Source: Fistulifera solaris (Eukaryota). From it: a stretch of DNA of 64,000 nt. A program made the position numbers and the translations under genes. How positions within the stretch are numbered: the first letter of the stretch is position 1; every line of letters starts with the position of its first letter. The DNA lies in NCBI GenBank assembly GCA_030295235.1, contig AP026164.1, forward strand, positions 1,302,001 through 1,366,000, in the 5' to 3' direction. This document shows positions 21,549 through 64,000 of the stretch, one piece after another. Below the pieces are notes generated by a model. That model did not search any database, was not told where the DNA came from, and was given only the letters and a program-made list of their open reading frames with translations.

Positions 21549-23161
21549 TTACTCGTAAAGTGCATAGAGTTCATCTCCACTTGAATCAGAATCCATGTTA
21601 TTCGCCCGATTACTCTGATCGAGTGCCTGCTCTTCGATACTGATGTAGTCATTGTTTCCTGCCAGAACACGAAACTTATCCATGATCGGCTTGATATCAT
21701 CATACGTCACCTTCTGTATTACGAGCAAGGACGCCAAGGCAAACTCATACTGATCTATCTTGTCGTCATGCTCTTCAGCCTGCATATCAATGATGAGACC
21801 TTCACTCACTTCACGACGGTCCCAGGCGTATTGTCGTCGGACGGCGCCGATTTCTTTGGACAAGGAGCCGAGGCGACCCAAGGAATCGCCAACAAAGTAG
21901 GTCGAAAATACCAAGAAGATAATCTGCACCCATCGCATATCAAAAGGCATGTCGAGATCGCCGTACTACGTTCAAAGAAATGTTGCATGAGTTATCGGTG
22001 CAATTGATTGATCTTCTTTTATTTGATGTCACTTACCCCGATGGTGGTGGTTGTTTGAACCGCCCAATAAAAGGTTGTCATCCACGTCCATTGTTGATTT
22101 TCTTCTTCTGAAAGCCTGACGAAGATTCGCGCCAAAAGAACTCCAATCAAGTTCAAGGCCAAAAATTCGACCGCAATAATGGAAAACTTGACCATGTAAG
22201 TGCGATGGATAAGTTGATACAGAAACTTCTCCTTTCCTACACTACGAACGAAGTAATCCATGGCCCAATCATGCAACCTATCTAACGGATTCCCCGTAGA
22301 TGATACGACGGCAGATATCGCAGTAACTAGCACCGCCATACTCAGAATCATGTACAGGATGCCCATCAACACGTGCCATCGCGGTTGGTCCAAGTTTGCA
22401 TCGATGACCGAAACATCGCCATATCTGAAGAAAAAGCAATCGAAAAATGAGACGACATGTTCCCAACTCGATTCACATTTTGTTACTACATGCAAAAGCG
22501 TACCCCACTGTGGACAGTGTCGCAGAAGCGAAATACATGGCGGTGAGCCAACCAGCGTAAGGTCCTCGTTCGGGAATATTAGGGCAAACCTTTTCGTCAT
22601 CAACAACCCAACAAAAAGAAAACAGGAGTGAAAAAGTAATACGCCAAAACAGTCAACAGGTATTTGGTGAATGGACTTCGAAGCCAAGGCCACCAACTGA
22701 TGATTCTCGTGTAATAGAAAGAGAAATCCTGATAGTAGAAGTAATTGTGCTTGATTTCGGAGGTGACGCATTCAACGCCTTTCTCCAAAACGGAAAGCAG
22801 CATTTCGGATTCATTCGGGAAGCCAAAGATCTCAAAGAGGGAAGCCACTTGGCTCCTGGGAGATTGCACTTCCTCTCGTAGCTCGTCACGGAATCGAAGC
22901 AAATCGTCGAGATGAATTCTCGTCTTGTGGTTTTGTTGTAAAGCGATCTCGCGACACTTCTCGAGAAATCGCTTACGTACAGCAAACGTGATAGGAATAC
23001 GATTTTCTCGTTTTTCTGCAGCCGGAGAGCAATGTCCTCTACTTCAGACATGTTACGGGCGCTCGTTTTGAGTGGATGTTCCGCCTGATAGCGCTGCATA
23101 CCTTTTCCAAAGCAATGAGCTGGTCCCTCATTATGCTGTTTGCCGTATTTCCCTTGGCCAT
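21549..23161 (-). CDS. Two-pore-domain (TPK/K2P-like) potassium channel
   Basis: Two pore loops, each split by an intron at the filter Gly: YFASATLSTVG|YGD and YWAVQTTTTIG|YGD. C-terminal DDKIDQYEF resembles an EF-hand. Frameshifts present. Confidence 0.85.
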
Positions 23162-23274
23162 GGTTATCGAGTGACGTAAAATATGCCCTCTTTTGTTACT
23201 TGCTACGAGTTCTTCAGGTAAAATAATGGCCTGGATAGATTTCGGACAGAGTTCGAGGGAATTTCTTTCTTTCT

Positions 23275-23353
23275 GGAAACGCGTTAAAATTCTGCCTCGT
23301 CGTTGATGCTACGTAGAATGTTGTACGAGAGGCAGAATTTTAACGTCCTTTCC
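23275..23353. repeat. ~80-bp palindromic element, copy B
   Basis: GCGTTAAAATTCTGCCTC..CTACGTAG..GAGGCAGAATTTTAACG, in reverse orientation relative to copy A. Confidence 0.85.
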
Positions 23354-23707
23354 TACCTTGGACCAGTACTGTATGTACCTGGTACGGTACAAGGTACCGG
23401 ACCAGTACCGGTACCGTACCCGTTCGAGTAGGTCCGGGACTGCAAATGAAATCAGTCATGTCAAGACAACCCTTTACGCCACAGTAATGATAACATGATT
23501 CTTCACGAAAACGTTTCCATGCATTTTTGGGAACGCAAGCATTGGTTCGCTGTCATGAGGAAAGGACATAAGTACGAAAATTCACACTTTTCATTGTTGT
23601 AGCCGCCTTCGGCGTCTAGCCCCTTTCGTGCTCGCCCTTCCCTGGGGATAGCGCCACACCCGTCAAATTGATCTAACTTATCGTCGAGCTCTTCGGCCTG
23701 CATATCA

Positions 23708-23891
23708 TGCACTACGCTTAAGCTGAAGGGGAGTGTAATCGTTTTGTTATTGATGAATTATGCTACATGATGCGAATAAGCTCGTGTGGCGGGGTCCATG
23801 AGTCAGCATGTTGTTGGCGACGTGTCCATTCCAATGGCGACGTCAATTATATTATTGTGTCCGATCCGACATTGTCGTGCAGCGTACTGCA
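23708..23891 (-). repeat. 3' LTR (184 bp)
   Basis: TGCACTACGCT...AGCGTACTGCA. Matches 28585-28769 except for one G in a G-run. Confidence 0.95.
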
Positions 23892-26800
23892 CTCGCTTCC
23901 TCCCAATGGTTGTTACCGATTGCGAGGGGGTGTAAGGATGCAGGAGACGGATGTTGATCCTGTCTTTGATTTTCCGATCGCCCTTAGCAATTTGGACAGT
24001 ACCGTTGGGATATACTTTAAGTACTTCATACGGTCCATCGTACGGTTGGGCATGTTTATACGTGTCTCGACGTTTGTAGAGTACACGGTCACCGGGATGA
24101 TAGGTGTATTTGATTCTTTTGCATTCTCTCTTTTGTTGTTTGTGTTGATGATTGATTGTTTGTGTCGTCTGATTTTTCGAAATCAGGATGAAAGGGTCTG
24201 TCAAAGAGGATGTCAGCGTCCAAAGACGAGTTCAGCTGGTGTTGCAAGATTGGACGTGTGGAACGTTGATCGGATGGCGTAGGCTGTGGCCGCGAGGAAG
24301 CCGGACCAGGGGTCTTTGGGGTCCATGTCTTGTTGTTGGAAGTTGAAAGTGCGCAGCATATTGTGAAGGGTGAGGTGCACTCGCTCCACTACGCTGTTAG
24401 ATTGGGGGTTTTAGATGGGCGCTTGCCGGTTTGCCTTTGACGCCCGTAGCTGGTTAACAGTTCTTGGAATTCATTTCCAGTAAATTCGCCGCCTTGATCG
24501 TATGTGATGTAGTGCGGGCGTGGATAGCGGCAAAACCATTGCCGATCGACGGCTAAGGCTACCGTCTCAGAGGACTTGTCGGAGATTTGGACCACTTCGA
24601 ACCACGATGTGGCCGGGTCAATCATTGTGAGTGCGAGGAGTTCATGTTCGCGGTGATTGGCATCGCGGACGGTGTATGGGCCGATGATGTCAACGCAGAG
24701 TCTTTTCCAGGGCTTGAATTCGGCTTCTTTTGCTGGCAGATGCCCATATTTTTGGTTTTCTTTTGAACATTTTGCATTCATGACAATCTGCTAGAGTTTT
24801 GCGAACGTCGGCAGCGGATGTTGTTCCAATGGAAGTTGCGCCCGAATGGTTAATTCCGTTCTGTCGAGGCCTGGATGGCACAGATTTTGGTGGTACCATT
24901 GAATTATTGGTTTTCGCGAGTGTTGTCGAACGAGGATTTTACCGTCTCGTTTCATGATCGAGAAATTTTGTATCTTTTCGATGTGGATGTCGTTGTGTGT
25001 CTCAAGCTGTTCAAGGAGGTTGGTATCGTTCCATTGATGCTGAGCAATTGTTTCCGTAACTAATGGGGATGGATGTGTGCGCTTGTATTGTCTCTTCACG
25101 CTTGCGTTTGCGCAGATTGGGTGTGTCGGTGGTTGTAGCGTTTTGCGATTGCTGTCGTTGACGTTTGGCAAAAAAAATGTTGTGCTCTTTCTGTGTACTT
25201 TCGGTGTTGTCGAGTTTGGATGGCGTGGACGGCGGGAGATTCGATAAGATTTGTCGAAGCCCCGTGGGTGTTAATGTTCGCGCTAGCGCTGCCTTCGGCC
25301 TTCGACTTCTGGTGTCGGTTTCAAGGGTAGTCGGCTTAAAGCATCGGCTACCACGTTTGCCTCGCCCTTTATATAATGTAATGTGGGCCCAAACTCTTCA
25401 ATATAAAGCAGCCACCGATGGATTCGATCGGGAGGAGCTCGGGTGTGTCTCAAAGGTAAGATTCTTGTGATCTGTCCAAACGTCGATTTCGTATCCTAAC
25501 AAGATGCTGCGGTATTCCCGTAGGGTTTCGGCCGATGGAGAGAAGTTCACGCTCTGTTGTTGTATATTTTTGTTGTGCCGGTGTCAATTTGCGGCTGTAG
25601 AAGGCGATTGGTTTGCCTTTTGCATGATGACTGCGCCAAGTTGGGTTTTGCTGGCATCGGTGTAGATGGTGAATTTCTCTTTGAAGTCGGGTATGCTAGT
25701 GCTACGTCCCGTGAGAGGAGATCTTTTATTGCCTTGAAGGCGTGCTCATGGCGTGGTTCCCAGAGGAATTTGGCTTTTTCGGATTTTTTGGTTAGTTCCG
25801 TGAGTGGTGCGAGTATTGTGGATCGATGTCGCCACATGTCGCGGTAAAAATTGATCATCCCAATAAATCGCCGGACGTCCTTTTGTGACTTCGGTCGATC
25901 CATGTTGAGGATAGCATCAATTTTCTTCCGCACGGGTGTGATACCGTCAGCGGGTGAGCCAGAATCCGAGGTATTCAATTTGTGTGGCGAAGAAGGTAGA
26001 TTTGGGAGCATTGACTTTTAGTCCTGCTGCTTGAAGTCGTTGAAGTACTTGTTCAATCTGGGAGAGATGGTCCTCAAATGAGCCGCGTCCGATGATGAGG
26101 AGGTCGTCCAGATAGGTCCGGACAAAATCTTCAAGACCGGACATCAAGGACATAATCTTTAGTTGGAAGATGTCACTTGCGACTGATATTCCCATGGGGA
26201 GTCGTTGGTAGGAGTACTTGCCCCAGGGGGGTGAGGATAGTGCAGAGATCTTGAGCAAAGGGGGTGAGTCGGATTGTGTAATATCCCATGTTTAAATCTA
26301 ACGCCCGTTCGCGTATTGGAATCCTTCTAGGTTATGGAGGATGTCAGCGATAGTTGGCGTGGGAAGTTTCTTCGTTGCAGTTTTGCGTTGAGCTTGCGGA
26401 AGTCTGTTACAAAGCGAACGGTTCCGTTGGCCTTGGGGATGATGAATGTTGGGTAGGCGTGTGGGCTATCGTCGTTCACGTTTGAGTACGCCGAGAGCTA
26501 CCAGCCGCTTTATTTCTTTATAGAGAGTCTTGCGGTGAATGTGTGGTACCGAGAATGCGGTTCGCGCGTGATAGGGTTGGTCATGGCCGGGCTTTAAAGT
26601 GACGTCGGCCGGTTCACAATCGAAGTCTCCGAGTGTTCCGTCGAATAAGAATTCGAATTTCCTCAGTAACTTGAGTAAGCGCCTTCTTTTGTTGTGGGTT
26701 CAGGGTTGTGATGTTTGCAACTACTTCGTCTAGGTTTGCTTTTTCATTTAGCATCTAGGATTTTTGTCGTCGCTGGTTGCTTTGACCTGCGGGCTTGAGT

Positions 26801-28584
26801 TATGGTCGTCATCGTCAGCCTGCCCTTATGACGTGGAGGGCGTTGGCAACGGATGTAGATGGTTCGGCTTGCATACGTGCAATTGCTCCGTCCCATTCGA
26901 TGCTTTGTCTTGAGTACGAGATGTTGATTTGATTTTGCTCTAGGAAGTCGCTTCCCAGGAGAAGTCCAAAGCGCGGTTTGTCGCTCGGATCTATGTAGAA
27001 TGTCCATTGCACTGACCGCGTTGTTGAAAGTTCCGGTAGTATTATCTCAACGGCTGCTACGTATTTGACGCGGAAGTCGCCGCCTTTCGTCTCAAAGGGG
27101 CTTTCGCGGCATTTGCGCCAATACTGTTTGGGTATCAGCTCGTGGTGGATGAACGATGCGGTAGATCCTGTATCAAGTAGTGCGGTGGACGTTGTCGCTT
27201 CCATGTAACTGTCTATGGGCAATATATCGCATAGTAATGCTGCCTTGCGTCGCCGTCGGTCTACCCTCTTTGGCCTCTTGGGGTCCATAGGTTGGCAGTG
27301 ACGGGTTTTGTCATCCTTTTGGTATATTGTGTGACACATAGAATAGGGAGAAACAGAATAACTAGAATTAGAATCGCTACTGGGCGATCGTCTCACGTCT
27401 TCCCTTGGCTCTGTGGCGCGGGGGTCGGTAGGATGAGGCAGTGCTGGCATCCGATGAGGATGCTTCTTTTATATGGTTGCTGTAGCGCGGACGTTTGCTG
27501 TCTCGGTCGCTAGCTCTGTTTCGGTTTCTAAAATCATCGCGAGGGCGTTTGTCCTGCCTGTCGTCAGCGGTCTCGTCGGTCGTCAGCGATTACGATTCCG
27601 TTCTCGGTCTCGCGGGTTTTTGTTGTCGTCTTCCTTGTTAGCCTTTCGGCGACAGTCGCTGGTGTTGTGCGTCGCTGAGTTACACTCGGAACACCACTTC
27701 CCATCCCTATTGTTTGTTTTGTTGCGCTTCGTGTCGGGCGTTTTTGGATCGGGTGCCTTGTTGGCGTGAAAAGTGTTGTTGAGCTTGTTCCTGGACCTCC
27801 ATGCGCTTGAAGCGTTGGAAAAGCTTCGGCCGGAGTATACTTGTTCGGGTCAGTTCCGTTGTTAGTTAGCTTATTCAGCCACGTGGCCGGAACGGCCTTG
27901 AGCATGAGTCGCCGATAGGAGTTCTCATCTAAGGTGGGCTGTTCGTCCACCGGTAGGGGTTCGCCGTCGGCTCCCAGGTCCTCAGGAAAATACTTGAGGT
28001 CGGCGATCATTTGGTCAATTTCCGAAACGAATTAAGCTGAACGTCAGCCTCCGGGTTTGCGGAGGGTCTCGATGTAGTCGAGTTGGTCTTTTCTCGGGGT
28101 ATCACTGTGAAAGTATTCTTTCTTGACCTTAGATAGTACTACTTGAAAGACGCCAGAGTCTCCGTCGCTACCGTTCGCGGGCTCTCTGGAAATCGTTCAG
28201 GGCCTTTCCAGTGAGGCACGAAGAGGTGACTCCGAACCTGGCTGGGCCGGTCGTACAGGGCTTTCGCTGGAAGACCTCCCGAAGGGCCGGTTCCCATTGG
28301 CACCAAAAACGTGCGTTATCGCCCCCGTACTCTCCGTCCGAATAGGGTCACGCTTTTCTTGTGGATGCCGAGGTCGGCGTTCAGCGGGTTCGTCGAAGTT
28401 CAAACTTGGCGGAAACGCCCGAAGAACAGGGCGTTTGTTCTTGAAGTTGTTCCTCATGTAGATGGAGGGGATGGAGAGTTGGCGAGACATGATGTCACTG
28501 AAACAAGTTCAACAGAATAACGGGCAAGAAAAAAAAAGGTGAGAAATGCAAGAGTACACCGTACCTCGTGCTGTGTTAACACAG

Positions 28585-28769
28585 TGCACTACGCTTAAGC
28601 TGAAGGGGAGTGTAATCGTTTTGTTATTGATGAATTATGCTACATGATGCGAATAAGCTCGTGTGGCGGGGGTCCATGAGTCAGCATGTTGTTGGCGACG
28701 TGTCCATTCCAATGGCGACGTCAATTATATTATTGTGTCCGATCCGACATTGTCGTGCAGCGTACTGCA
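28585..28769 (-). repeat. 5' LTR (185 bp)
   Basis: Direct repeat of 23708-23891 with 11-bp imperfect terminal inverted repeats. Confidence 0.95.
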
Positions 28770-30605
28770 TATCATTGATGAGGCCCTCTCGCCGATGATC
28801 CCAAGCGTACCTAAGTCGCATTATATCAATTTCTTTAGACGAATCGACCCACGGAATATCCGGCAAAGTATGTCAAAAATAACAAAAATACAACCTGCAT
28901 CCAACGAATGTCGAATGGCATGTCGAGATCACGGTACTTCAGTTTGAAAAAAGCTTGCATGAGATCGAGATACAAAACATCATTTCCTTTCCGACTTATT
29001 CATCTTACCCCGATGGGGGTGGTTGTTTGAACAGCCCCAGAAAAGGTTGTCATCCAGGTCCATTGCTCACTTTCTTCACGAGAACAAATTTGCGAGCCAG
29101 GAGAACCCATGACATTCAGCGCTAGAAATGAAAAGTTCACAATGTAACTCCGTCGGACAGTTGGTAGAGAAATTTCCAGTCATGCATCTTGTCAAGTGGG
29201 TCCCTCTAGAAGACGCGTATATAGTGGTCATCAGAACCACCACGCTCGAAACCATGAAGACAGTCCCTGCAAAAACATACCACCGTGTATGTTCGACTGC
29301 AACATTACCTTATCTAATATTGGGGAGCAAGTCAGACAAAACGTCAGCGGATGTCGAACTAAGCGTCAAAAGGTCCTCTTCAGCACTTACCCCACCGTGA
29401 AAGCGTTACAGACGCAAAGTACGTCGCAGTGAGCGTAAGGTCCTCTTCCGGGAACATCGGGACAGACATCTTCGTCGTCTACTGTACAATCCAACAAAAA
29501 AGAACGGAAGCAAAGATTTAGAAGGCCTGAACAGTCAATTCGGTATTTCTGTAAGGGGCTCCGCAGCCACGGCCACCTGCTAATATTAATCTTGTATAAT
29601 AGAAGGAGAATTTTTGAAAGAATTAAAAATTCCTGCTCGAGCTCGGACGTGACGTATTCGATGCTTTTGTCTAGCTCACGAAGGAGCATGGTGGAGTCGT
29701 CAGGAAACCAACCCAATGAAGGAGAGAAAGAAACAGGGTTTGGCAATGCTCCACTTCCTCTCGTAACTTGTCCCGGCAATGTCGTAGATCATCGAGAAAA
29801 ATTCTTTTATTGAATCCACGTTAAATAGCCCTTTCACGGTCCTTCAGAAATCTCTTTCGCACCGCCAAGGTAATGGGAATTCCGCTGTCTCGCTTGATTT
29901 CAATCTTATGAGCCAGATACTCGACTCCAGACATGCGACAGTCGCTGGTGCTACAAGGAAGTCGTTCATCCGCGTTGATTGCATTGCCCCCAGAGTCTTG
30001 TTTGTGTAGAGAGTTTTTCGTTAATTGCGCTTGGAACATAGGTCGTCAAGATGTGGTGAGCTAGGAGTTTTTGATCTATGAAAACCAGCAAAACGATTCA
30101 TATCCTTGCTTTTTTTGAAGACTGGAGCTTCGATGGGTTCATCTGAAGTACTCGAGAATACTCTTAATATTATTTTTGGGGGTTGAACTTCGATCGATCT
30201 TGGATTCTCTCATTATAAGGTTGGCAGTGAAGATTGGCGTTTGAAACCTGATGTTTCGAGATGCAGCGAGAAATAAGCACAAAAAAGGTCTACCAGCATG
30301 GAGCGGTTATTGCCAAAAAAATTAGAGGGAGATCTCGTCGCCGCTCGTCGCAACCGTACAAGTAACTTAAAGAATTTGCATGTAATTTTGAGGTGGTTCA
30401 GCAAAACCCTAGCCTCAATGGTGCTCAAATTTCCGGTACCGTACCTGGTACCGGTACCTTATTGCACCTACCTTGAAAGGACACCAACACCAACAACAAC
30501 TACTACTTGGTACCTCGATTTGCTCTCAGGGCTTCATTGTGAAGATCGATAGCCTGTCTTTTCTTTTATAAATGTCGTTAACAGACAAAACCCAGTTGCA
30601 GTATC

Positions 30606-31545
30606 ATGGATCCGCGTCCCCTAAAGCGCCCGAGGAGTTCAACACCAACCAAAGGCGGTAAGTGAGTGTTGTATTCGGTGGTACCTCACTGCGATTTATC
30701 CTCACTCCTTTACTGCTAAATCATTTAAGATGCTGTGCAGAAAAGAAAGGCTCCAAAAAGAGTAAAAATAAGAAGAAAGTACAACTACCAGAAGCCACTT
30801 CAGCTACTACAAAAACGAAACAGAATGCATCTCCTCTTGACGAGTAAGTCCTTTTGCACTCTCTGATCTACATGGTCTCTTTTACGTGCCTCATGGTCTT
30901 CACCCCCACAGAACAGCGACAGCGGAAGGTCAAATGATGTCGCAGATGCTTTCTACTTTCTCTTTCATCGAACAATCGCGATTTGAAGCATACAAACGCG
31001 CGAAATTAAATCACCCTGCCGTAGAAGACTGGGTGGCAGCATGCGTGTCGCATCACATGTCGCTGGAAGGCCCTGGCCGTCCACTATCCGATCTAGTGAC
31101 ACCAGGAAGTCACCGAGAGATTGCAATGGTCGTGGCGACGGCTGCGAAAATTTACGCGCAACGTCTGGTGGCGGCCGCGTTGAAAGCAGAACGTCCTGGG
31201 GCGCCATTGTCTCCCGAGACTCTTTGGAAAGTGCTACAAGAACGGAGAAGGAATGGAACAGATCCTGGTTTTTACTTACAAAAGAATGGGTCTATACAAT
31301 TGAATGCGCCCCATTCGTGTAAAAATTACGAACAGCGTCGACTCGCTGGGTTAGCGGCGCAAGAGGCATATGATGCAAAGTTTGGGACGGATTCATCAGA
31401 GCACGCAGATGAATGCGCAACCGTCAAAAATGAAGCGAGCGATGCTGTAGAAGAAAGGAGGTCTGATGAAAAGGAGGATACTAAAGCGGCGGACGTCGAG
31501 AATGAAGTGAAAGACGAAGATTTCATGGACGGGGCCGACAATTGA
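30606..31545 (+). CDS. TAF11: TFIID subunit TAF11-like histone-fold protein (2 introns)
   Basis: LSTFSFIEQSRFEAYKRAKL..IAMVVATAAKIYAQRLV..PLSPETL resembles the TAF11 fold. Introns ~30658-30740 and ~30844-30911. Confidence 0.7.
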
Positions 31546-57337: not shown

Positions 57338-57710
57338 TTTCTAAAGAGAAAGAAGCAAGGGTGAGTCAAATCCTGTCGTGCGGAGGAGTGCTCGTTGTCA
57401 AATGATCATTGCCCGCGATATACGCAATTACCGATCGCTTCGTCGCAAGTCGTTCTGTTCTTCCCCCACATGTTCACTCACCTCAGTGTTATTCAAATCA
57501 CTTTTATTATGGAAGAAACAAAAGCTTTCGTTATTGTATGAGTTGATAACAACACAACGCAATCGAATGATTGCAAAATGAATGCAGATGATCTGCAGCC
57601 AAAAGTTCGAACGGAAACTGAACAGGCGCGAGACAGTTCTCATTACACTATAGTCTATCCCGGAGGGAAGTTTTGACAAAGCGCGCGCACTGCACCTATA
57701 CTACAAAGTA

Positions 57711-57932
57711 GGTACCGGTACCGGTACCGGTACCGGTACCGGTACTCTTGTATGCTCCGCCCAGCCGCCCAGCGGTAGCGGTGCCGGCGTGTTTTTCAAA
57801 GGGTGGAAAATGGGCGCGCAGCACCACTGTACAAAGTAAAAGCTACTGGTACCGGTACCGTACCGGCACAAGTACTCTAGAGTAGCAATTAGGAAAGGGT
57901 ACGGTACCGTACCTGGTAACGGTACCGTACCG
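57711..57932. repeat. (GGTACC)5 array plus degenerate GTACC cluster in a divergent intergenic region
   Basis: GGTACC x5 at 57711-57740, with further GGTACC/CGTACC units at 57847-57932. Confidence 0.9.
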
Positions 57933-58091
57933 GCACGATATGTCGTGGTCGATGGAGTTTGGAGCGAAGCGCATAACGAGATTTCCTGTTCTGTGTTCAC
58001 TTTTCAAGCTTGAAAAACACCCATTGACTTGCTGGTAAGAGGAGTGAATGGCAATGATCTTAGATAAGATACTGTATACAACAAGAAGAGA

Positions 58092-60143: not shown

Positions 60144-60998
60144 TTAGAAGTGCATAGGTACTGTGGACTGTGACTGCTGCCAAAACATTTCAGCTATGGT
60201 ATTCGGATGTACCTGATGATTGTATTGTGCGGCTGGGGGATCTATCTGCAAAGATATTGGTGCGCCAAGAGTTTGTTGAAGTCGTTTGCTTGGTTGCCCG
60301 TTGTAGGTCGATTGACGAATCCATACTTGTGAAACAAATTTCGTGTCAATGGCAGGCAACGCTGCATGCAAAGCCATCTTATCCAGCATACCGTCAACAG
60401 TAGCAGGAAAGAATACCAGCGCCATGCCTCGTCGCGGCTGAATATCTAGATTAAGAGCCGGAAAACGTGTCGCGCCACCTCGCATAACATCGTTCAAATA
60501 AATCAACACTGTGACTGTCCGCTGTCCTCCGTTCGCCGCGAAACGACGACCATCTTCCGTGCTCAAATCAAAAGCTATGATCGATAGCATGGATGTGAGT
60601 ATCAAAAAATCACTGTAAAAGGAAGAAATTGACAGTAGGAAAAGAACAAACGTACCATCAAAATGCTGAAGATACTTTTCTTGATAGAAGTAACGTCCAA
60701 CTTGCGGAAGCTCACAGTGTTCTGGGGGTTTGCCCGTCAACAAGGTCACTTTGCGCATCAAATCACCAAGATCTTCTCTGGCCAAGTAGCAAGTCGAGCT
60801 GGTGCGACTCGGTGATATCTCCCCCGCCCCTTTTCCTACAACTGGTGCTGGTCCGAGTCCGTCCACCGCTGCATGGATGAGGAAATCGCATTCATACGGC
60901 GTGAGAAAATTTTCGACGGCAAAAATTGGAGGTGAATTGTTTAGAACACGCAGGCCTGGGTAGCTCGGATTAACGCCGTTGTAAATTGGAGGCGTCAT
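60144..60998 (-). CDS. Prolyl 4-hydroxylase-like 2OG-Fe(II) dioxygenase
   Basis: NFLTPYECDFLI, RTSSTC, QVGRY..YLQHFD|AFD, RTVTVLIYLNDV..GGATRFP, LHAALP. Intron ~60577-60655. Confidence 0.9.
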   Translation of the reverse strand: MTPPIYNGVNPSYPGLRVLNNSPPIFAVENFLTPYECDFLIHAAVDGLGPAPVVGKGAGEISPSRTSSTCYLAREDLGDLMRKVTLLTGKPPEHCELPQVGRYFYQEKYLQHFDGTFVLFLLSISSFYSDFLILTSMLSIIAFDLSTEDGRRFAANGGQRTVTVLIYLNDVMRGGATRFPALNLDIQPRRGMALVFFPATVDGMLDKMALHAALPAIDTKFVSQVWIRQSTYNGQPSKRLQQTLGAPISLQIDPPAAQYNHQVHPNTIAEMFWQQSQSTVPMHF

Positions 60999-61700
60999 TG
61001 ATGAATCTTGGAGCGAGAAAGTAGTTATGGTTGGTACAAGAGAATCTGTTTGCGGTATCTCCTCTAACAAAAGAGCTCGTCAAGGAGGTGCGCGTTTTCG
61101 GGTTGAGCGATCGCAAGCGACTAAAGCTGTAGTCAACAAAGAAATAAACTACGGAGTATGCCACAAGTTCCCTCGAAATAACGCTTATGATTTCTTGCTG
61201 CTTGAATGGGTATAAAAATGGAGCATAAACAAAGATGTGATCGGGGGTATAAATAGTTCGTCGTGTCGAAGCACTTCGGAAATTGACGGTGAACTTTGCT
61301 TGAACTCTAAAACGGCTGTGACGTCTGTGAGGGCGCAATGGCGCTGGCAATTTCTACGGTGGATACGGGAATGAAACACGAATGAATCATCTAATCTGCG
61401 CGAATGAAGATCATTCTCACAAAGATCAGGTCCGCCTCTTGTGATTGCTTGATGACGAAATCTACGATTCATTTTGTTTATAATGAAATAAAATGAGAAG
61501 AATGACGAAAGAGTTCGAGTGCGGACGAGTCAAAGAGGAAAGGCTGCATTTTTATTAGCAATCAGCATGCAGCATGAATGCATGCCGCAAAAAACTACTC
61601 CGTATATACAAGTACCGTACTTATATAGTACTTGTATTTGCAGGTTGCATGCCGCATTGGCATCGTCGTTCGAATGGACAAGGGACGAGGACCGTACCAT

Positions 61701-61779
61701 GGAAAGGCGTTAAAATTCTGCATCGTCGTAGACGCTACGTAGAATCTTGTACTGGGGAGCAGAATTTTAACGTCCTTCC
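61701..61779. repeat. ~80-bp palindromic element, copy C
   Basis: GGCGTTAAAATTCTGC..CTACGTAGAATCTTGTACTGGG..GCAGAATTTTAACGTCC, a near reverse complement of copy A. Confidence 0.85.
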
Positions 61780-62791
61780 CGGGTACCAACAACCAACAAC
61801 CGCACACCGCACAGAAAAAGGGAGACACGGGAACGCACCTCTGCTTGGTACATTTCTCTACGGGGGCCTACGCGAAAGTACACAATTTCCCGCACCGTCC
61901 CGTGGCCCGTGCTAAAAGATTAAGCCATGGCATAATTGTTCGTGCCATAAAACTTAGAGAAAGGGTCATAGTCATTTATAATCAAAACGCCCAATAAGTC
62001 AAAAAGACTACACTAATTTCCGGAAAGTGTTGCGTTCAGTGTGACTGAAGTTAAAGTTAATGTTTTAATTTATTACTCATTACTCATTACTCATTACGAT
62101 TAAGAATTTCCGATTAGAAACTAGAAAAGTATCCCGTACCAGGTATTGGCAAAGCTAGGTAGTAGCAACTGGCAACTGGAAATCGACAATTGGCAATCGA
62201 CAATCAATAGTTGGCAATTGGCCATTCGAAATTCGAAAAAATGAAGTCATTTGTCATTTGGGGTTACTGAGTTCGGTCCTACAGAGATGTACCAAGTAAT
62301 ATTATCTACGGATGCTGGAACCTGGAACAGGTTACAGTTGGTAAGCTGAAAACGTGAAACATAGAACAAGTCATAAGATGGGGTTATAACTTGGAACTAA
62401 TTACTTCGCATCTCCGCATCCCGCATCCGGTCATGAGGGCAATTACAAATTACTAACAACTAAGAAATAATGAAAGGACTATCAAGATGAACGAATATCA
62501 TCAAGCATCCCATTCAAGCATCAAGCATCGACCAGCAACCAGCAACCAGTCACATTCACGTGAGATGTGACAGGTCACGGGTCACGTAGATTAGCTATCA
62601 GTACCACTGAGAAACCAATAAATAATGTAAGGTTTTACCGGCATAAATAAGATAAAGAAGCCCTAAAATTCCACGCCCTGCTTGACGTGCAGAGTGCAGA
62701 GATCCTTTTAGCCTTCAAAATAACCTCCCAGCTCCCATTTGCCATTTATAAAGACTCTGCGTTTTGAGAAGTGAAACATCCTAACAGCACG

Positions 62792-64000
62792 ATGAACGAT
62801 CATTACAAAGTTTCTCCCCTAAGTTCCCCTGCGACTACGAGCACCGACCGTTCTGACTCTTCCGCGCAAAGCGCTGAAACCAAGAAGATGCCAACGAAAG
62901 CGCGAAGGTCGTGGAAGAAACCTGCTGTAAGTATGATCAAGGCTATTTGGGGCCTCTGCAAGACAGTGTCACTCATCGGTCTTTTCTTTCTTGTACATCG
63001 CAATAAACAGGGAATGCCTCGTCGGCCTCTTTCAGCCTATAATCTATTCTTCAAGGAGGAAAGAAAGAAACTTTTAGGCGGAGAGGATGCAGAAGGTGAT
63101 AGTTTAGTTACTTCAAAACGGAAGCACCGAAAAACGCACGGTAAAATCGGCTTTGCTGATCTGGCCAAAAGCATCAGTCAGACATGGCATGATCTCAAGA
63201 AAGAAGAGAAGCACAAGTATGAAAATGAAGCTAAAAAGAGAAAACAAGAATACTTTCTTCAGCTTCAAGAGTACAAGGCAAAGAACGCTGAACAAGAATC
63301 CACGTCGAAAGATGACGACCGCTCTGATTATGCAGCGGTGCTCGTGTCAATGTCTCGGGTCACTACTGATTCTTCAATGGCACGGACTGCTTCCTTCAAT
63401 AAAACCAGAGTTGCCGAAAATGTTGAAGTCCCCTTTGTTCGCTCTTCGGCTACTTCAAATGAAAGTGAACAAGAAAAATTGTTGGAAGACTCGGTAAATC
63501 GCCCACGCGTCGCTGAAAACTTTGCAAGCACGACCGAGTCTAATGATTTGAAGCACAAATGTGCTATTCCTGTAGCTCAACCGACAATGGCAATAGCTCC
63601 TATGCAACTAGCACACGATGTGGCAATAAGGAATTTGATTATGGTGAACTCGGTTCAGGGGCCTCTCACAGCCTCAGTTCCGCTTATAGGCAATCTACAG
63701 CAAGTATCACAGCTAAACCAAGGAACAGGTAACCTTTTGCAACCCAACCTATTCAGTCCTTTGGGAAGTTGTTCTCAGAACTTAATTCAGTGGGTCAATC
63801 CTCGACTAGTTACTCAGCAGCGTTGTCTGAATGTAACTGGTGTCGCACAGAACCCGGTCACCAGGCTCACGTTTTCGAACCAGCAAGCGCTCTTTGGTGA
63901 TTCGGGTTTGCTTTATGGTCGTGTCTTGCCGATTCAAAATCAAATCCGCACCGTTTCAGTTCAACCGCCTCTGGCCGGGAACTCACAAAACAGCATGTTG
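62792..64000 (+). CDS. HMG-box protein (runs off the window end)
   Basis: WKKPA|GMPRRPLSAYNLFFKEERKKL..KRKHRKTHGKIGFADLAKSISQTW..YENEAKREKQEY. Intron ~62927-63010. Confidence 0.88.
   Translation, partial: MNDHYKVSPLSSPATTSTDRSDSSAQSAETKKMPTKARRSWKKPAVSMIKAIWGLCKTVSLIGLFFLVHRNKQGMPRRPLSAYNLFFKEERKKLLGGEDAEGDSLVTSKRKHRKTHGKIGFADLAKSISQTWHDLKKEEKHKYENEAKKRKQEYFLQLQEYKAKNAEQESTSKDDDRSDYAAVLVSMSRVTTDSSMARTASFNKTRVAENVEVPFVRSSATSNESEQEKLLEDSVNRPRVAENFASTTESNDLKHKCAIPVAQPTMAIAPMQLAHDVAIRNLIMVNSVQGPLTASVPLIGNLQQVSQLNQGTGNLLQPNLFSPLGSCSQNLIQWVNPRLVTQQRCLNVTGVAQNPVTRLTFSNQQALFGDSGLLYGRVLPIQNQIRTVSVQPPLAGNSQNSML

Follow-up and report, generated by a model that had tools for sequence, protein, structure and literature searches.

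Short tandem duplications that arise without sequence homology are a known type of mutation. Schimmel 2021 (PMC8355091) describes them as products of paired nicks or patch-mediated breaks that are filled in and end-joined, and further homology-independent short duplications are attributed to Messer and Arndt 2007 and Vaughn and Bennetzen 2014, as cited in PMC11385596. Two bacterial phenomena are also close: the excess of heptanucleotides among long simple sequence repeats (Mrazek 2007, relayed in PMC4679880) and the E. coli mutator TopA R168C (PMC6954433). Here, we analyzed a 64,000-nucleotide stretch of the diatom Fistulifera solaris (contig AP026164.1, positions 1,302,001 to 1,366,000; hereafter the window), in which the region between a P4H-like gene and an HMG-box gene carries a dense field of 7-bp tandem duplications of unrelated words. 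This field is a mutational hotspot and not a functional element. The underlying events are homology-independent, sequence-diverse insertions of seven bases, concentrated upstream of genes and absent from coding DNA.

As far as PMC8355091 describes it, the paired-nick class shares with the diatom events an exact adjacent copy, arbitrary sequence and no prior repeat. The diatom events belong to the homology-independent class, as the exact adjacent copy is single-copy in the relative and no microhomology is needed. They differ from the indel lengths covered by PMC11385596, which are geometric or power-law, in that one length dominates. The primase route requires pyrimidines near the 3' tip and was tested with overhangs of at least ~43 nt; the diatom unit, of 7 nt and purine-rich at position 6, would not match it. 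Bacterial heptanucleotide repeats favour seven as well, but those relayed in PMC4679880 are multi-copy prokaryotic arrays with TAACTGA as one word, whereas in this eukaryote 95% of events remain below three copies, and the words number in the hundreds. The R168C mutator, as presented in PMC6954433, also produces de novo repeat-independent tandem duplications in hotspots. It is, however, a mutant enzyme with broad lengths, for which its authors found no motif, and the diatom lacks the TopA preference for C at -4. The target-site duplications of DDE transposases (7 bp for P/Galileo/1360, 8 bp for hAT) resemble the diatom pattern in fixed length, mild target preference and promoter hotspots; they differ in that nothing of an element or its ends lies between the diatom copies, the sample contains no convincing family with 7-bp target-site duplications, and the motif is better described as one-sided.

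In the literature searched, with subscription journals outside coverage, no description of diatom 7-bp tandem duplications or of a length-specific indel peak was found, and searches on heptanucleotide microsatellites of diatom genomes and on Galileo/1360 elements were empty. A term search of the main text of a bioRxiv paper on an allopolyploid diatom genome likewise gave no mention of such duplications. New here are the promoter gradient, the hotspots conserved while their words turn over, the no-homology test and the end motif.

A field of 7-bp duplications upstream of an HMG-box gene

The field, which forms the upstream region of the HMG-box gene, contains 13 exact primitive 7-bp tandem duplications with unrelated units (Table 1). 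In 1000 dinucleotide shuffles of 61541-62770, such duplications had a mean of 0.08 and a maximum of 2, and the real field holds 0, 1, 0 and 0 exact duplications at lags 5, 6, 8 and 9. Lag-7 identity reaches 0.394 against a baseline of 0.26, which implies that ~18% of 61551-62791 is duplicated DNA, or ~32 duplication-equivalents counting decayed ones. On the side of the P4H-like gene (60999-61550, ~550 bases), a lag-7 excess is absent. With 13 duplications per 1.2 kb, the field is the densest in our sample; the runner-up has 10.

The preliminary description had reported duplicated, unrelated words of fixed length between the two genes, and this observation is borne out by the counts above. Some of its examples need correction: TAGAAAC, CTCCCAG and CCATTTG, listed as exact duplications, each match at only six of seven bases, and the AATCGAC/AATTGGC/AATCGAC block at 62181 contains no exact tandem pair. 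The five near-exact pairs of the field are probably decayed duplications, and the ATTACTC array was probably formed by duplication followed by expansion.

Short-read contigs of run X1 span 60783-61746 and 61871-62910 with no substitutions and two 1-base gaps. They reproduce 11 of the 13 duplications identically; the pairs at 61785 and 61799 fall between contig pieces and are thus unspanned by the short-read contigs listed, the only point in favour of an assembly or long-read artefact. As run X1 perhaps represents the assembled strain, it excludes an assembly artefact, yet it is not an independent isolate. Decayed copies exist, some of them common to both subgenomes, and coding DNA is spared, so that the probability of an artefact is negligible. 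The records list no RNA holder for this stretch.

Length, end motif and distribution of the events

The pattern was followed through a sample of ~0.96 Mb, less than 2% of the genome and enriched for HMG, HSF and miniature inverted-repeat transposable element (MITE) loci. Overlaps were removed per event, low-complexity units were filtered in the pooled profiles, and one simple-repeat block was excluded from the pooled counts (L028:6200-7500, on C6 near 1306500; a degenerate GA-rich block, then a 17-bp tandem array with an inverted continuation). Outside long open reading frames (ORFs), lag 7 contributed 386 events, whereas lag 6 had 101, lag 8 had 64 and each of the lags 9-16 had 26-58; the lag-7 peak is higher than lags 4, 5 and 6. 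The 386 events comprise 306 distinct units, so that length is fixed and sequence free, unlike microsatellite slippage, and palindromic units show no excess (46/386 vs 10% expected). The 384 kb not selected by gene type contained 84 lag-7 events (61 once the focal pair is left out), and lags 8, 10, 11 and 13 gave 14-22 there. ATG-to-stop ORFs showed no lag-7 excess (19 vs 10-28 at the same four lags). The 'local mutational process' of the preliminary description therefore stands insofar as exactly seven bases of any sequence are added; it is not local, being genome-wide with a hotspot at this locus.

A run of exactly 7 bases was seen in 180 of the 386 events, which therefore lack microhomology on both flanks; chance would account for ~30 of the 180. 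This proportion, 47%, compares with 53% in a simulation without homology. Arrays of three or more copies account for 20/386 events, and an excess of runs of 5 and 6 reveals decayed copies. The end motif was derived from the 180 events of known phase, against a local null and with both strands counted. T is enriched at unit position 2 (0.42 vs 0.29), TC at positions 2-3 (58 vs 23) and GTC at positions 1-3 (24 vs 5.5), and position 6 is purine-rich. A one-sided weight matrix describes the units better than a palindromic one, with a gain of 14.4 against a maximum of 13.6 in 150 simulations.

Lag-7 density per kb falls from divergent (1.92) through tandem (0.85) to convergent gaps (0.19), and at transcription-factor (TF) genes it is 2.63 upstream and 0.69 downstream. 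Counts per gap are overdispersed (chi2/df 3.2), with 91 of 194 gaps empty versus 44 expected. Hot and cold gaps are equal in G+C and GTC content and similar in CpG. No strand bias relative to gene or transcription was detected (T2 38, A6 40 of 95). A small lag-8 class is also present in the pooled non-ORF sample (26 exact events vs ~9, with T at position 2 and A at 7); it represents either a tail of the 7-bp process or remnants of hAT targets. At metagenome loci with related HSF genes (n = 80; ~76 kb non-ORF; taxa undetermined, many transcript-like), 34 lag-7 events were counted against 5-24 at other lags, with T2/A6 at 21/46 (p 0.02), which is no more than suggestive of the process in other lineages.

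The polarity of the events was assessed between homoeologs. Gene matches occur in contig pairs, and 104 kb of the 124 kb around the window, located on contig C4, align to contig C3 at 88%; the genome thus holds two subgenomes. Of the lag-7 pairs from 33 homoeologous regions that could be aligned (n = 48), 27 have only one copy in the partner, 13 are duplicated on both sides and 8 are ambiguous. The lag-7 events are thus +7 insertions, a point for which the preliminary description had proposed such a comparison. Single-copy partners at lags 5, 6 and 8 number 2/34, 6/44 and 1/6. In 207 kb of aligned homoeologs, exact tandem copies make up 9/39 indels of 7 bp, against 0/34, 3/72, 1/21 and 0/18 at 5, 6, 8 and 9 bp.

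The homoeologous C3 promoter retains short conserved blocks and has its own field of 10 exact duplications, a single one of which is common to the 13 of the window. The field is a single-copy promoter with conserved blocks, which does not support the earlier suggestion of a pathway aimed at a decayed repeat. Hotspot strength correlates between homoeologs (rho 0.76, 32 pairs), as do private units per non-ORF kb (rho 0.48, p 0.013, 26 pairs), while only 2/152 units are common to both (32 pairs). Since density agrees between partners even for private units, the hotspot belongs to the locus itself and predates most of the duplications that it carries; its strength is an enduring trait of the locus.

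Genes, repeats and subgenome context

The genes and repeats around the field are included in Table 1. The HMG-box gene has a GT-AG intron at 62927-63010, which is skipped in a contig of run X2. Two MITE-like repeats within the field had been overlooked in the preliminary description.

Table 1. Coordinates of the duplication field, its units and the neighbouring features in the window.
Feature	Position	Strand	Remarks
7-bp tandem duplication field	61563..62747		HMG-proximal 1.2 kb of the 1.8-kb divergent intergenic region 60999-62791
CAGCATG x2	61563..61576		exact; present in short-read contig
ACCAACA (61785) and ACCGCAC (61799), abutting	61785..61813		exact; between the two MITEs; outside the long short-read contigs listed
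ATTACTC x3.7	62072..62097		exact; in short-read contig
GCAACTG (62165), ATTCGAA (62224), GTCATTT (62246), CTGGAAC (62315)	62165..62328		exact; in short-read contig
CCGCATC (62414), TCAAGCA (62514), GGTCACG (62573), GTGCAGA (62687)	within 62414..62701		exact; in short-read contig
ACCAGCA x2.7	62531		exact; sole unit common to the window field and the homoeolog; in short-read contig
Near-exact pairs (6/7 bases), n = 5	61899, 62115, 62441, 62725, 62735 (61899..62747)
HMG-box gene (PF00505, E 5e-12)	62792..64000	+	ATG at 62792; continues past the window end
2OG-Fe(II) oxygenase / P4H-like gene (PF13640, E 5e-7)	60144..60998	-	divergent from the HMG-box gene; putative start codon
MITE-like palindromic repeat A, ~80 bp	61701..61780		hundreds of candidate copies; ~3-bp CNG/CWG flanking duplication
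MITE-like repeat B, ~80 bp	61820..61900		42 matches listed; 2-3-bp flanking duplication

MITE A occupies a similar place in both homoeologous promoters (window 61701-61780; L061:6786-6867), with subgenome-specific subtypes and different flanks, reflecting either independent insertion or later homogenisation. It often lies in a GTAC-CWG-GTAC-like context. GTAC-based palindromic stutters with periods of 5, 6 and 7 occur at 57709-57745 and 57846-57935 of the window, in many MITE A flanks (L122-L150), at L113:~1540 and at L115:~1565. In two MITE B copies, insertions of 7 or 5 bases produce GTAC-type words and do not amount to plain tandem copies. The stutters may stem from a distinct, sequence-specific process, or they may be footprints left by MITEs.

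Between the subgenomes, ~7.5 kb of the window (~23124-30606) is present in C4 and absent from C3; one part of it resembles, by eye, a retrotransposon aspartic protease. A long inverted repeat pair, ~2.9 kb apart, surrounds two host-like genes at L021:6840-9770.

Origin of the duplications and its implications

Our preferred explanation, to which we assign a probability of roughly 0.6, starts from a nick in promoter DNA that is open and accessible (nucleosome-poor or underwound), with (G)TC weakly preferred at one end. Either the opposite strand would then be cut at a distance of 7 nt, or a strand-displacement patch of 7 nt would turn into a break. Filling in of the 5' overhangs and joining would then leave an exact adjacent 7-base copy with no prior repeat required. 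Later slippage may account for the few 3-4-copy arrays, and point mutation would wear down older pairs. A 7-nt staggered cut with fill-in had already been proposed in the preliminary description: the duplications without microhomology fit it, and the cutting step is one that we infer.

Several points weigh against this explanation. The nick, the break and the enzyme are deduced from their products rather than observed. For 156/204 lag-7 pairs no alignment to the homoeolog was obtained, so that polarity rests on 48, and part of the 27 single-copy differences could be losses, the comparison lacking an outgroup. Runs of at least 11 occur in ~13% of events versus ~4% in the no-homology model, so that slippage contributes. 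The one-sided fit, which ignores neighbour correlations, could also arise if a symmetric enzyme had one strong and one weak half-site, and units of the form GT...AC number 5/180 where 0.6 are expected. Intron-like windows show a mild lag-7 excess (11 vs 1-6 at lags 5, 8, 10, 11 and 13). Gap orientation was taken from ORFs only and is approximate, TF and MITE loci are over-represented in the sample, and the divergent class contains the focal pair, without which its density is ~1.7 per kb by subtraction. Finally, part of the promoter bias could be due to greater tolerance of insertions and not to a higher rate.

The long runs, together with the arrays of three or more copies, are what polymerase slippage with a preferred 7-nt register would leave, the nascent end realigning seven bases back and recopying; the favoured length is also that of the bacterial long simple repeats relayed in PMC4679880 (Mrazek 2007). 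Yet the 180 events without microhomology far outnumber those expected by chance, and slippage alone does not account for the tenfold divergent/convergent contrast at equal base composition, which makes it unlikely as the general source. The marks of microsatellite slippage, namely pre-existing repeats, few motifs and a rate falling with unit length, are confined to the minority with three or more copies.

Slightly less probable are scars of DNA transposons: target-site duplications that remain when a transposase with a 7-bp stagger (P/Galileo/1360 type) excises its element cleanly or cuts abortively, or else excision footprints of hAT elements. P/Galileo/1360 transposons have a 7-bp target-site duplication with the consensus GTnnnAC; hAT elements use an 8-bp target, nTnnnnAn, and their excision footprint has the central base lost or complemented. 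The sharply fixed length, the GT...AC units, the 26 nTnnnAn units (13.9 expected), the MITEs that are frequently found in the same gaps as the duplications, two hAT domain matches in the genome and the hAT-like positions of T and A in the lag-8 class all speak for this origin. The preliminary description had likewise considered footprints of elements with 7-bp target-site duplications, an idea that the elements themselves do not support. MITEs A and B have flanking duplications of only 2-3 bp, and no exact 7-bp duplication lies within 43 + 33 aligned MITE copies, so that MITEs were rejected as the source; these copies are young, and the lack of duplications within them says little on rate. An inverted-repeat scan of the ~0.96 Mb yielded three candidates with a 7-bp flank, of 10-11 matching bases and chance-like, although it gave clear 6-bp and 9-bp flank classes. 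Unclassified terminal-inverted-repeat elements with 6-bp target duplications were located at L066:4519-4863, L064:4997-5782 and L164:314-878, and one with 9 bp at L155:2555-3038. A search for the P-transposase domains PF21787 and PF21788 gave no candidates, a weak negative as prokaryote controls were silent; hAT domains were found by the same search. The hAT footprint itself fails: A at 7 given T at 2 is 0.30 vs 0.29, T1 shows no excess, and the spacer base is complementary to its neighbour in just 43 and 46 of 179 cases. No transposon-end remnants lie between the copies.

By analogy with TopA R168C, errors of a type IA topoisomerase on underwound promoter DNA might also be considered, though we regard them as improbable. 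R168C yields repeat-independent tandem duplications in hotspots, as noted above, and the order divergent > tandem > convergent would match negative supercoiling. Each subgenome encodes three type IA enzymes, two Top3-like and one bacterial-type TopA (best match TIGR01051; L265, C38 near 369400), but possession of such genes is ordinary. According to PMC6954433, R168C lengths are broad, 2-19 bp in galK, and by our own count from its supplement 7-bp insertions make up 2/22 in galK/tdk. The preference of TopA for C at -4 of the cut, as stated in PMC7587558, is absent here, with C at 0.16 vs 0.22 at -4 and 0.23 vs 0.22 at unit position 4.

Selection that retains doubled words, multiplying transcription-factor sites at 7-bp spacing, is less probable still. 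In its favour, the excess peaks upstream of TF genes, the units are rich in TGAC/GTCA words, and one duplication of the window adjoins a TCACGT block conserved in the homoeolog. Against it stand the 306 distinct units, their near-complete turnover between homoeologs both here and over the 32 pairs, and the excess in intron-like windows. Seven bases, moreover, are not one turn of the DNA helix. Excision repair initiated by UVDE was tried and rejected as a further candidate: UVDE nicks are followed by a 7-nt repair patch, and TC is a dipyrimidine, but the genome gave no UvdE candidates, in a search whose control was positive in 3/14 genomes.

Returning to the nick-and-fill-in explanation, we tentatively hypothesize that a diatom nuclear nicking or repair activity, so far unrecognised, that works to a fixed ruler of 7 nt and prefers (G)TC at the end, may keep rewriting the promoters of regulatory genes. 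The same ruler is perhaps behind the 7-base excess of some bacteria, in which case the mutational signature would be a general one that has yet to be described. Short homology-independent duplications rank among the chief sources of new DNA, and how they originate is under debate; with one dominant length, a motif at the unit end and stable hotspots, the diatom events offer a sharp handle on the enzyme in a transformable alga. The dominant 7-bp length also violates the smooth indel-length models used in alignment. Such copies make up about one fifth of the focal promoter, so that the process may be a driver of divergence in regulation between the two subgenomes.
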